Source: a virus (Duplodnaviria; Heunggongvirae; Uroviricota; Caudoviricetes). From it: DNA of 4,609 nucleotides. The translations under genes and the position numbers were made by a program. Below, piece after piece: positions 1,547 through 4,596 of the stretch. The number at the start of each line of letters is the position of its first letter. The first letter of the stretch is position 1. The notes below the pieces were generated by a model. It saw only the letters and a list, made by a program, of their open reading frames with translations, was not told the origin of the DNA and did not search any database. The stretch lies in IMG/VR virus record IMGVR_UViG_2534681705_000011; one strand, 5' to 3'.

Positions 1547-1918
1547 ATGCGTATAGAGTTTGTTTTGCCTTACCCGCCGACGGTGAACACCTACTGGCGA
1601 CGCCGTGGCAGCACATATTTTATCTCAGAGGAGGGAAAGCGTTATCGCCGGGATGTGGCGCTCATTGTTCGCCAGCAGCGACTGAAATTAAATCTGTCCG
1701 GAAGGCTGGCGATCAGGATTATTGTGGAGCCACCGGATAAGCGCCGTCGTGACCTGGACAATATCCTGAAAGCGCCACTGGATGCACTGACACATGCGGG
1801 ACTGCTTATCGACGACGAGCAGTTTGATGAAATTAATATTGTGCGCAGTCAGCTTGTACCTGGTGGTCGGCTGGGCGTGAAGATTTACGAAATTACAGGT
1901 GGTAACGATGGCACGTGA
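1547..1918 (+). CDS. rusA: Crossover junction endodeoxyribonuclease RusA (Holliday junction resolvase)
   Basis: 123 aa with ATG at 1547 preceded by AAGAGG (1535-1540). The RRRDLDN and LIDDEQ motifs (catalytic acidic residues) and GGRL are clearly RusA-like. It lies in the canonical position upstream of Q. Confidence 0.93.
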
Positions 1919-2273
1919 TATTCAGATGGTTCTTGAGCGTTGGGGAGCGTGGGTGGCAAATAATCATGAGGATGTCACATGGCCATCGATTGCTGCTGGC
2001 TTTAAAGGATTAATACCGTCGAAAGTTAAATCGCGTCCGCAATGTTCCGACGATGACGCAATGATCATTTGTGGCTGTATGGCCCGGTTGAATAAGAACA
2101 ACAAAGAATTACACGATTTGCTGGTAGATTATTACGTGGCGGGCATGACGTTTATGGCGCTAGCACGAAAGCATGGTCGTTCGGATTGCTGGGTTGGCCG
2201 TTTGTTGCAAAAGGCTGAAGGGATAGTTGACGGCATGTTGATGATGCTTGATATCAAGCTGGACATGGACTGA
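1908..2273 (+). CDS. quuD: Late-gene antitermination protein Q (short QuuD / phage-82-like family)
   Basis: ATG at 1908 preceded by AGGTGG (1897-1902), overlapping the rusA stop (TGA 1916-1918). The 121-aa product matches the short Q family by length and position, and the sequence ([23 protein letters not shown]..., [16 protein letters not shown]) agrees with QuuD as I recall it. The ORF track's GTG at 1899 is an alternative start. Confidence 0.85.
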
Positions 2274-2290
2274 TAAAACTTAACTCACAT

Positions 2291-2312
2291 ACCCTCTCCA
2301 TGCGGAGAGGGT
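2291..2312. terminator. Inverted repeat between convergent genes (Q on + and lipoprotein on -); likely bidirectional terminator or 3' stabilising hairpin
   Basis: ACCCTCTCC (2291-2299) pairs perfectly with GGAGAGGGT (2304-2312) around an ATGC loop. T-runs on either strand are displaced by about 10 nt from the stem, so the terminator call is tentative. Confidence 0.45.
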
Positions 2313-2317
2313 ATGAA

Positions 2318-2797
2318 TTAAATGTTTTTATAATAACTCGCTTTTTCGTTAAAATTATTTTTGTTTTCTCTGGATGGAGAACTTACGTAGTTTTCCCATG
2401 CGCTATACGTTTTGATTAATGCTTCTCGCTCTGTAGGTGATTTTGTGTTTGCCTTGAGTTTTTCAAATGGTTCTTTTGCTGCATTTAAAACGATCATCAT
2501 TTGCTCGATGTCGCAGTCAGCGATTGCTTTTGATATATCGGGATCCCAGCCAACTCTCACTAACATATCTTGCTTGCTGGAAGTAATAAATTGTGTAGTG
2601 TTGATTATCATTTCTCCCTTATATAGAAGCTTTAAAAAATTATTTTTGTTAACTTGCTGGGGCGTGTTGTCCAAGGTGATATTTTCGCATTTCTTTAAAT
2701 ACGCATAATGATCACTATTTCTGTTTTCTGCGGAAGATTGAGCCGTACACCCTGTAATGATCAATGTACTTAATAATGTCAATGCTATTTTTTTCAT
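2318..2797 (-). CDS. Lipoprotein of unknown function, encoded by an AT-rich insertion (moron)
   Basis: 159 aa. The N-terminus MKKIALTLLSTLIITGC is a signal peptide with a lipobox (ITGC), and the residue after Cys is Thr, not Asp. The gene and its upstream region are visibly AT-rich (2341-2400 is about one-third G+C by hand count) against GC-richer flanks. It converges on Q. Confidence 0.8.
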   Translation of the reverse strand: MKKIALTLLSTLIITGCTAQSSAENRNSDHYAYLKKCENITLDNTPQQVNKNNFLKLLYKGEMIINTTQFITSSKQDMLVRVGWDPDISKAIADCDIEQMMIVLNAAKEPFEKLKANTKSPTEREALIKTYSAWENYVSSPSRENKNNFNEKASYYKNI

Positions 2798-2873
2798 ATG
2801 GGCCTGCTTGTGAATTATCGTACAAGAAAAGTTCGACTAAATTTTATCGTAAAAAGACATCGCCGAACAGATG

Positions 2874-2901
2874 TTTACAATCGTAAAAAATCAAATATGC
2901 T
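2874..2901 (+). promoter_or_regulatory. Candidate sigma-70 promoter, possible late (PR'-like) promoter relocated downstream of the insertion
   Basis: TTTACA (2874-2879), 16-nt spacer, TATGCT (2896-2901). The hairpin plus T-run at 2933-2955 lies about 30-50 nt downstream of the predicted start, the promoter-then-terminator arrangement used by Q antiterminators. By eye only. Confidence 0.3.
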
Positions 2902-2932
2902 GTTAAGAGTGGTTACTTCGCCACACAGCTTA

Positions 2933-2955
2933 AACCCGCCGCCAGGCGGTTTTTT
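2933..2955 (+). terminator. Intrinsic terminator-like hairpin with T6 run (candidate tR'-like terminator)
   Basis: CCGCC (2936-2940) pairs with GGCGG (2945-2949) around a GCCA loop; flanking A:T pairs are possible; TTTTTT follows at 2950-2955. No + strand gene ends just upstream. Confidence 0.5.
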
Positions 2956-3078
2956 GTGTCCGAAAAACGGCGCAGTACGTTAAACGTGCTGGTGGTTGCG
3001 AATACCGGTCTTTCAGCTTGCTGGCTTTTTCGACAAGAGTTATTGGTATGTCACGTTAACCAGAAAAGGGAAAAAGAC

Positions 3079-3273
3079 ATGCTAAAACAGCAGGATATGA
3101 CCGAAACTGCCAGAGTGGTATTTAATGAATTAAGCGTCACCGAACCGGCGACCGTCGGGGAGATTGCGCAGAATACTTACCTTTCACGCGAACGCTGCCA
3201 GTTAATACTGACCCAGCTTGTTATGGCGGGTCTGGCAGATTATCAGTTCGGTTGTTACAGACGTCTTCCGTAG
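3079..3273 (+). CDS. Small winged-helix DNA-binding protein (PapI/FaeA-like)
   Basis: 64 aa from ATG at 3079, preceded by AAGGG (3066-3070). The segment VVFNELSVTEPATVGEIAQNTYLSRERCQLILTQLVMAGLA follows the PapI/FaeA winged-helix pattern (T-x-E-I-A ... S-x-x-x-x-R ... L-x-x-x-G). The longer ORF-track version (GTG at 2956) has an implausible N-terminal extension crossing the terminator. Confidence 0.6.
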   Translation: MLKQQDMTETARVVFNELSVTEPATVGEIAQNTYLSRERCQLILTQLVMAGLADYQFGCYRRLP

Positions 3274-3426
3274 TGAAGGCTTTTTAATTTGTGGTAATGG
3301 GCGGCTGGTGGGTGTTAGCGGCACCTGCCAGCCATCTGCTCATGCGTTGTGGTCACAAGCAAACCTCAGGCCCATCTGCTTTGCGCAAAAGCGGTATGAG
3401 CCTATCAGAGAAGTGCTTATTGATCT

Positions 3427-4038
3427 ATGGCTAATACTGTAAAAATATCCAGTTGTGAGTTAATCAACGCTGATTGCCTGGAATTTATCCAGACCTTACC
3501 GGAAAATTCTGTCGATCTGATAGTCACAGACCCGCCATACTTTAAAGTGAAGCCCGAGGGCTGGGATAACCAGTGGAAGGGCGACGATGATTACCTGAAA
3601 TGGCTGGACCGGTGTCTGGCGCAGTTCTGGCGGGTACTGAAGCCCGCAGGAAGTCTTTACCTGTTCTGTGGTCATCGCCTGGCATCTGATATCGAAATCA
3701 TGATGCGTGAACGCTTTAATGTGCTGAACCACATTATCTGGGCGAAGCCGTCCGGACGCTGGAACGGATGCAATAAGGAAAGCCTGCGGGCGTATTTCCC
3801 GGCAACAGAACGCATTCTGTTTGCAGAACATTATCAGGGGCCATACCAGCCCAAAAATGACGGCTATGCGGCAAAGGGGTGCGAGCTAAAACAGCACGTC
3901 ATGGCCCCGCTGATTTCTTACTTTCGTGATGCGCGTGAATCACTGGGAATAACGTCAAAACAGATAGCGGAAGCCACCGGAAAGAAAAACATGGCTTCTG
4001 GTTTGGACCAGTCAGTGGCAATTACCGAACGAGGGTGA
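3427..4038 (+). CDS. N6-adenine DNA methyltransferase (beta class), N-terminal part carrying motif IV DPPY; reading frame interrupted
   Basis: DPPY at residues 35-38 (nt 3529-3540) within DLIVTDPPYF, followed by an HTH-like segment LGITSKQIAEATG. The frame ends at TGA 4036-4038 while the rest of the enzyme continues in the +1 frame. Confidence 0.8.
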   Translation: MANTVKISSCELINADCLEFIQTLPENSVDLIVTDPPYFKVKPEGWDNQWKGDDDYLKWLDRCLAQFWRVLKPAGSLYLFCGHRLASDIEIMMRERFNVLNHIIWAKPSGRWNGCNKESLRAYFPATERILFAEHYQGPYQPKNDGYAAKGCELKQHVMAPLISYFRDARESLGITSKQIAEATGKKNMASGLDQSVAITERG

Positions 4039-4048
4039 TTACAACAAA

Positions 4049-4471
4049 TTGCAGGCGTTGTTTGCGCGTGTTGCGGCAGAAAAGCATCAGCGAGGGGAAC
4101 TGGAAAAGCCACACCACCAGCTGGTCAGCACATACAGTGAACTGAACCGGCAATATGCCAGCCTGCTGGAAGAGTACAAATCCCTGCGGCGTTATTTTTC
4201 CGTATCGGCTGCCGTTCCGTATACGGATGTCTGGACGCATAAATCCGTGCAGTTTTATCCGGGCAAACATCCCTGTGAAAAACCGGCAGATATGTTGCGG
4301 CAGATAATTGAGGCCAGCAGTCACCCTGGTGATTTGGTTGCGGATTTTTTTATGGGTTCAGGTTCAACGGTAAAAGCGGCGATGGCACTGGGGCGTTGTG
4401 CGATTGGTGTTGAGCTGGAGACCGGACGTTTTGAACAGACAGTCAGGGAAGTTCAGGATTTAATCGTTTGA
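4049..4471 (+). CDS. N6-adenine DNA methyltransferase, C-terminal part (AdoMet-binding motif I); continuation of the preceding ORF in the +1 frame
   Basis: Contains HPCEKP and DFFMGSGST (FxGxG-type motif I), as in beta-class MTases such as YhdJ (recalled). This frame is open from 3968 (after TAG 3965-3967). The ORF-track start at 4049 is TTG; the first in-frame ATG is far downstream. Confidence 0.75.
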   Translation: MQALFARVAAEKHQRGELEKPHHQLVSTYSELNRQYASLLEEYKSLRRYFSVSAAVPYTDVWTHKSVQFYPGKHPCEKPADMLRQIIEASSHPGDLVADFFMGSGSTVKAAMALGRCAIGVELETGRFEQTVREVQDLIV

Positions 4472-4520: not shown

Positions 4521-4596
4521 GGCCCTTTAGCTCAGTGGTGAGAGCGAGCGACTCATAATCGCCAGGTCGCTGGTTCAAATCCAGCAAGGGCCACCA
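4521..4596 (+). tRNA. ileZ: tRNA-Ile2 (anticodon CAU, lysidine-modified type; ileX/ileZ-like), CCA encoded
   Basis: Cloverleaf built by hand: acceptor GGCCCTT/AAGGGCC, D-arm GCTC...GAGC, anticodon loop CTCATAA (CAT at 4554-4556), T-arm GCTGG-TTCAAAT-CCAGC, discriminator A then CCA. Very close to E. coli ileX as recalled. tRNAscan would probably report it as Met/Ile(CAT). Confidence 0.88.

Follow-up and report, generated by a model that had tools for sequence, protein, structure and literature searches.

Positions 2874–2955 of the window, the 4,609-nt stretch of DNA analysed here, are very probably the late module (promoter pR′, Q-binding element and terminator tR′) of the antiterminator gene Q at 1908–2273, with an antisense 'moron' inserted between the gene and its target. 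The window comes from a lambdoid prophage and covers its nin/Q/late boundary. The original prediction placed a Q-dependent late promoter and its proximal terminator downstream of Q, displaced by an insertion. It is now backed by comparative evidence and by a transcription start mapped in a homologous copy in Escherichia coli K-12. The predicted displacement of ~0.6 kb also holds, running from the Q stop codon at 2273 to the start of the −35 hexamer at 2874. The genes and hairpins around the module are as follows.

485–1534: DUF968 gene.
1547–1918: rusA.
1908–2273, plus strand: Q antiterminator gene, 121 aa, phage-21 family, QuuD-like short subfamily.
2288–2315: perfect 12-bp hairpin with a 4-nt loop, lying between two convergent stop codons, that of Q (2273) and that of the antisense ORF (2318).
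2318–2797, minus strand: inserted ORF, 159 aa, convergent with Q; PHROG 8179, function unknown.
3079–3273, plus strand: small winged-HTH (wHTH) gene, TrmB-like, with a weak Pfam TrmB match; PHROG 331.
3263–3280, plus strand: second terminator-like hairpin with a T-rich tail, overlapping the wHTH stop codon.
3427–4471, plus strand: N6/N4 DNA methyltransferase gene, frameshifted, with PF01555 in two ORFs (3427–4038 and 4049–4471).
4521–4596, plus strand: tRNA with anticodon CAT, annotated as ileZ in phiP27.

The Q protein matches PF06530 in Pfam (E = 6.4e-51), which was the only family found in a Pfam scan; no 82/QuuQ-type family was matched. In the PDB, it matches the Q21 chains 6p18 and 6jnx (E = 1.9e-9), and it is assigned to PHROG 79. 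Phage 82 had been suggested earlier as the system for comparison. Because Q belongs to the phage-21 family rather than to the 82 type, pR′21 is the right comparator. The closest relative, RM11911, is 98.7% identical in DNA over 1899–3426 and carries a RefSeq Q gene call of equal length. The predicted recognition helix, the second helix of a predicted helix-turn-helix (HTH), begins at about residue 93, and the long loop that separates the two HTH helices in Q21 is absent from the 121-residue window protein. A single-sequence AlphaFold model has a pLDDT of 47, too low for a search with its fold; the helices that it places at residues 66–88 and 93–113 are no more than compatible with the HTH assignment.

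The elements of the module itself, with positions relative to the predicted start where these apply, are listed below.

2874–2879, plus strand: −35 hexamer TTTACA (−34 to −29).
2876–2885: imperfect 10-bp palindrome TACAATCGTA (−32 to −23), overlapping the −35 hexamer; proposed Q-binding element, from its co-variation with the Q recognition helix.
2886–2890: A-tract, directly after the palindrome.
2896–2901, plus strand: −10 hexamer TATGCT, separated from TTTACA by a 16-nt spacer.
2904–2909, plus strand: TAAGAG, an alternative register of the candidate pause element.
2905–2910, plus strand: −10-like AAGAGT, candidate sigma-dependent pause element, straddling the start (−3 to +3).
2908, plus strand: predicted transcription start, an A 7 nt after the −10 hexamer; the equivalent A is mapped in the K-12 prophage DLP12.
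2909–2924, plus strand: predicted 5′-terminal RNA hairpin, GUGGU/GCCAC with a 6-nt loop.
2936–2955, plus strand: intrinsic terminator tR′, CCGCC/GCCA/GGCGG followed by T6, with a 5-bp all-GC stem and a GCCA loop.

The promoter-like pair TTTACA-16-TATGCT (2874–2901), the GC hairpin (2936–2949) and the T6 run (2950–2955) are present where the original prediction had put them. Its description of the pair as the first plus-strand promoter-like site after the insertion is not strictly correct: an overlapping site, AAGACA-16-TACAAT, begins earlier (2854–2881), but that site is absent from relatives. Across the window, promoter-like sites number 5 against 5.7 ± 2.1 expected from shuffles and terminator-like sites 12 against 4.5 ± 2.4, and the motif statistics for promoter plus terminator, taken alone, are not above chance. 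Since the bare motifs are unremarkable, the case rests on comparison with other sequences.

We recovered the same module from 265 further loci in phages, prophages and genomes. Of 267 pattern-matched loci, the window included, 233 have a Q gene of the phage-21 family (PF06530) 5′ of the module and on its strand; the other 34 comprise 31 with less than 1.9 kb of upstream DNA, two chance pattern matches and one true exception. Q and module are separated by less than 100 nt in 98 loci, the canonical layout, and by 0.5–3.7 kb in 135, where the intervening DNA is variable and mostly antisense, as in the window. When we started from Q alone, its homologues in Xenorhabdus, Buttiauxella, Trabulsiella, Pantoea, Citrobacter and Rosenbergiella each proved to be followed, in the same orientation, by a divergent form of the module, and a profile search made without the module search pattern yielded 23 divergent homologues. 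More than 120 IMG/VR contigs contain a 25-mer of the leader, and more than 120 others contain a degenerate form of it. In megablast searches of phage genomes, homology to many phages begins abruptly at 2873–2901. It begins at the −35 hexamer (2874) for phages of the window's Q class, and it spans only 2901–2954 for SfII and SfIV.

The leader is also present in at least 843 E. coli genomes, K-12 included; among the matches listed, no annotation covers any of the 923 places matched in RefSeq genomes of E. coli. In K-12, prophage DLP12 contains an intact module between nmpC and essD (positions 4194–4280 of our locus L179, corresponding to NC_000913.3 ~577,193–577,279) that is unannotated in RefSeq.

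Several features of the promoter are conserved across these sequences. The −10 hexamer fits TAnnnT, with T in 98%, A in 100% and the final T in 100% of 139 distinct sequences at positions 1, 2 and 6, all of which lay outside the search pattern. Depending on the class, −35-like hexamers (TTTACA, TTTACG, TTGTGT, TTGCGT or TTGCGG) are found 16–17 bp from the −10, and two large classes have weaker −35-like hexamers at 18 bp. The start site is anchored by K-12. The offset from U00096.2 to NC_000913.3 coordinates at DLP12, which we take to be +777, agrees with the total length difference between the two K-12 sequence versions. With this offset, a start site in DLP12 falls on the A that stands exactly 7 nt 3′ of TATGCT and corresponds to A2908 in the window. 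That start is the plus-strand entry at U00096.2 576,452 in the Cappable-seq table of Ettwiller et al. 2016 (PMC4782308), and a second start in the same table, used as a check on the conversion, likewise falls 7 nt after a −10-like hexamer. The DLP12 promoter is thus active in uninduced K-12. Its signal is weak (Cappable-seq score 1.7), which would not be surprising if the RNA is very short. Other −10 assignments were considered and rejected: TACAAT at 2876–2881, the A-tract, and TGnTAAGAG as an extended −10 are either not conserved or at odds with the mapped start and the covarying 5′ hairpin.

Every sequence has a palindrome between −35 and −10 followed by an A/T tract, and its form differs from group to group, changing symmetrically. 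The forms found are GCGTACGC, GCGGTCCGC, TACGATCGTA, TACGTACGTA, TACAATCGTA (the window's form), TGTTATAACA, TGTCATGACA, GTAATTAC, GGAATTCC, GCGCTACGC and TCGTTACGA. Across at least 11 classes, the form goes together with the sequence of the recognition helix in Q. Helices of the type CSDT.IGKR are paired with TACGATCGTA in 14 of 14 distinct cases and those of the type CSDG.IGK[KR] with TACGTACGTA in 10 of 11, so that, for example, Thr versus Gly after the 'SD' motif of the helix corresponds to GATC versus GTAC at the palindrome centre; TACAATCGTA is found at all 16 loci that have the window's helix. Among 121 alignment columns of Q, residues 95 and 94 have the highest mutual information with the palindrome class. 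The window Q and the 89%-identical Q of locus L074 differ at 4 positions in residues 1–90 and at 6 in residues 91–103.

Because the palindrome changes in step with the Q recognition helix, 2876–2885 is likely the Q-binding element, probably bound by a symmetric Q dimer. In lambda and phage 21, too, the Q-binding element is located between −35 and −10. Q and palindrome are linked, and we found no insert common to different palindrome classes by which linkage could be separated from selection; co-inheritance therefore contributes to the correlation. The symmetry of the palindrome's changes and the concentration of the signal in the recognition helix nevertheless speak for a functional role. At canonical, insert-free loci (for example L182, L009 and L034), Q ends 16–40 nt ahead of the leader, with its stop codon within or beside the palindrome. 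The Q frame there runs into its own promoter, so the C-terminal Q codons overlap the proposed binding site.

Transcription from A2908 to the end of the T run would give a terminated RNA of ~48 nt (2908–2955). Its 5′ hairpin is supported by co-variation of the pair 2912–2921, which is G–C in 25, A–U in 20, G–U in 16 and unpaired in 18 of 79 distinct sequences. A single-stranded stretch with a conserved CUUA (2929–2932) separates this hairpin from the terminator, whose own hairpin (2936–2949) has a predicted stability of −9.4 kcal/mol and a short stem, with one G fewer than that of phiP27. A terminator-like hairpin with a T run was detected by a strict test in at least 124 of 156 distinct sequences, as 54 different stems at the same place; most of the others fail the test on thresholds only. 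The predicted terminated RNAs are 46–110 nt long across loci (median 57).

Searches for a described counterpart of this RNA returned nothing. An Rfam 15 covariance-model scan at E ≤ 1 gave no match at 2874–2956; a full-text search with the leader sequence and the literature on quuD and essD yielded nothing relevant; the leader sequence is absent from the Tree 2014 supplements; and the accessible part of the Adams 2021 Term-seq supplement lists no 3′ end near K-12 577,27x. We rejected HnrS (PMC13502914) as the identity of the short RNA: it is 66 nt long and restricted to EHEC/EPEC, whereas the element described here is also found in K-12.

The tetranucleotide TAAG at 2904–2907 is complementary to the conserved CTTA that follows 22 nt later (2929–2932), and next to it the pair 2903/2933 shows partial co-variation (T–A in 18 of 18 and A–T in 34 of 55 distinct sequences). 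An outer stem 2902–2907/2929–2934 was considered and set aside: it was backed in 19 sequences, its key pair was kept in 52 of 73 of a larger set, and its 5′ arm precedes the start. As the TAAG arm lies before the mapped start, TAAG/CUUA pairing cannot form in the pR′ RNA.

AAGAGT at 2905–2910 is the only pause candidate, and no conserved TAnnnT or AAnnnT was found downstream of +3 in the module sequences. All except one of the 23 divergent homologues retain A2906 and T2910. The hexamer sits 6–7 nt nearer to the −10 than its phage 21 counterpart and straddles the start site, which makes a pause role speculative.

The DNA between Q and the module differs even among relatives, in which unrelated inserts occupy the same gap. 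The window's ORF at 2318–2797, the 'moron' that separates Q from its promoter, encodes a protein with an N-terminal lipoprotein-like signal (LIITGC) and no match in a Pfam scan. phiP27 has a plus-strand GIY-YIG gene at this place, SfII has two antisense genes and PhiR40_1 has a different antisense ORF. Across the module loci, we counted 110 distinct inserts, and the largest ORF is antisense in 95 of them, as in the window. In these comparisons, the stretch between Q and pR′ looks like a general site at which antisense cargo genes have repeatedly settled, so a Q-dependent promoter is not to be expected beside the Q stop codon. The promoter of the ORF at 2318–2797 must itself lie in the 75 nt (2798–2873) directly upstream of pR′, back to back with it. 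No such promoter was identified in 2798–2873, and the lone minus-strand promoter-like match (2814–2787) overlies the start of the ORF. The hairpin at 2288–2315 is probably a bidirectional terminator that would also halt early transcripts exiting Q.

Near the start of the window, plus-strand positions 52–133 show a weak, sub-threshold Rfam match to IsrK, an sRNA of Salmonella Gifsy-1 (27.8 bits against a gathering score of 50, E = 0.0037). The match ends in a strong terminator-like hairpin (112–129) with a T run and lies just 5′ of an ORF at 223–483 (PHROG 1212) and the DUF968, rusA and Q genes; it may be an early-region terminator or an sRNA analogous to IsrK.

Downstream of the module, a scan of the window found no further plus-strand promoter-like site after 2901. 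phiP27 has the same order of wHTH gene, methyltransferase gene and tRNAs, followed by stx2e, and RM11911 has the same order followed by holin, lysozyme and terminase genes. In other relatives, late genes lie 3′ of the module without these intermediates: the holin gene directly in SfII and essD in K-12. The window itself ends at the tRNA. The absence of another plus-strand promoter after 2901 and the order of genes running into stx2e or lysis genes in relatives make it plausible that the wHTH gene, the methyltransferase gene and the tRNA are Q-dependent and induced only on prophage induction, as had been proposed. The terminator-like hairpin at 3263–3280 would fit an operon dependent on processive antitermination. 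Compared with RM11911 and phiP27, the methyltransferase gene lacks 4 nt after 3997 and 1 nt some 9 nt further on. This split reflects either a frameshift or a sequencing error; if the gene is frameshifted, the prophage may be decaying.

Among known systems, phage 21 is similar in several respects. Its Q21 belongs to the same family (PF06530), its Q-binding element lies between −35 and −10 of pR′21, as does the proposed one here, an intrinsic terminator follows ~45–50 nt from the start (the leader is 45 nt in phage 21 and ~48 nt here), and tRNA genes and then lysis genes lie downstream. There are also differences. The phage 21 Q-binding element is a direct repeat, ATTGAGCA/AATGAGCA, at −27 to −12, whereas the window has a palindrome at −32 to −23 followed by an A-tract; the two directly repeated TGAGCA subsites at −26 to −13 that mark the phage 21 type are absent from the window module, which has an inverted repeat instead. 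Phage 21 has a pause element, TAAGCT, at +2 to +7, of which none is evident in the window. Its leader is itself the terminator hairpin, and the two leader sequences are unrelated. Finally, Q directly adjoins pR′ in phage 21, whereas the two are 0.6 kb apart here.

The K-12 prophage DLP12 is another close counterpart of the window. It has the same Q subfamily, a near-identical leader, the same TATGCT, a palindrome (TACGTACGTA) at the same place and antisense spacer DNA, and its palindrome and Q helix form a class neighbouring that of the window. Its layout is quuD, nmpC::IS5 (antisense), then essD/rrrD/rzpD, which places the module 2.9 kb downstream of quuD, beyond a porin gene and IS5, in contrast to the 0.6-kb insert of the window. 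From the module, essD is 170 nt away and the lysis genes follow directly, with no wHTH, methyltransferase or tRNA gene.

The lambda pR′/6S and Stx pR′/StxS systems share a constitutive late promoter, a short terminated RNA in lysogens and antitermination by Q, and short terminated pR′ RNAs have been described for lambda, 21, 82, P22 and Stx phages (PMC7547250). The lambda and Stx Q proteins belong to families unrelated to the window Q, and their leaders are longer: 194 nt for lambda 6S and ~250 nt, processed to 74 nt, for StxS, against 48 nt in the window. With phage 82, the general Q logic is held in common. The Q/pR′/tR′ logic of the window is thus that of a textbook cassette, and the separation of Q from pR′ by an insert is ordinary. 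The class-specific palindromic Q site, judged from the sequences compared, is likely a family-level variant that is undescribed in the literature we found; a literature search returned no paper on this leader or on the binding site of QuuD-like Q proteins.

Three other explanations of the module deserve consideration. It could be an ordinary constitutive promoter and terminator, that is, a free-standing sRNA gene or an attenuator at the 5′ end of the wHTH operon, acting independently of Q. We consider this improbable. A usable −35 and −10, activity in uninduced K-12 and the sRNA-like layout of the predicted 48-nt RNA (5′ hairpin, single-stranded stretch, terminator) would all fit, and short pR′-derived RNAs can indeed be sRNAs, as exemplified by StxS (PMC7547250). 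However, an sRNA function is compatible with Q control and does not compete with it, and Q independence leaves unexplained why a same-strand Q gene lies upstream at essentially every locus with enough DNA, why the palindrome co-varies with the Q recognition helix and why lysis genes lie directly 3′ in SfII and K-12. The co-variation bears in the same way on the suggestion, which we regard as similarly improbable, that the palindrome is the operator of another regulator, for instance a repressor or the wHTH protein encoded 3′ of the module, with Q acting elsewhere or not at all. In that case, many loci would carry the operator in the absence of a wHTH gene (SfII and K-12 DLP12 among them), the palindrome class would track helix residues of the wrong protein, and its place between −35 and −10, shared with the lambda and phage 21 Q-binding elements, would have to be fortuitous. 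The appeal of an operator is that palindromes are typical for dimeric repressors whereas Q21 uses a direct repeat, and that a wHTH gene does lie 3′ of the module in the window.

The remaining explanation concerns the promoter itself, and its prospects seem to us slighter again. TATGCT would be a sigma-dependent pause element, and the promoter would be AAGACA-16-TACAAT (2854–2881) with a start at ~2888, a phage-82-like geometry. TACAAT is the better −10 match, and a start at ~2888 would bring 2902–2907 into the RNA and permit the partly covarying TAAG/CTTA pairing. Yet neither AAGACA nor TACAAT is conserved in other classes, or even in PhiR40_1, which belongs to the same Q class. The K-12 start lies 7 nt after TATGCT with none listed upstream of it, and an A-rich stretch at about −41/−42 fits an UP element of the TATGCT promoter.

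We therefore return to the late module of Q, for which the following sequence of events can be proposed. Sigma-70 RNA polymerase would initiate at TTTACA-16-TATGCT, starting at A2908 by analogy with the start mapped in K-12. In the absence of Q, transcription would be expected from the sequence to end at the hairpin and T6 run (2936–2955), releasing the ~48-nt RNA. After induction, Q made from the early transcript would bind the palindrome TACAATCGTA, probably as a symmetric dimer, as the co-variation suggests. By homology with Q21, for which this has been shown structurally, Q would load onto the polymerase soon after initiation and render it terminator-resistant. The wHTH gene, the methyltransferase gene and the tRNA would then be transcribed and, if the gene order of relatives applies, so would the lysis and structural genes beyond the window.

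At the level of the family, we see an even chance that the QuuD-like Q branch as a whole loads onto RNA polymerase via a symmetric palindrome overlapping the −35 element and has diversified into at least 11 Q/site pairs. This branch may use a palindrome and not the tandem repeat of the Q21 structures, and its specificity may be readable from the first two or three residues of the recognition helix. If this reading is true, the invariant 46–60-nt leader is a widespread unannotated prophage RNA. For the prophage studied here and for the phiP27-like Stx2e phages that share its layout, the module would fix the start of late transcription and identify the genes that lie behind a Q-controlled terminator: wHTH, methyltransferase, tRNA, then toxin or lysis genes. 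The table of Q helices and palindromes amounts to testable predictions of DNA recognition by the QuuD-like Q subfamily, and the Q/palindrome classes form a set of possibly orthogonal antiterminator/site pairs.
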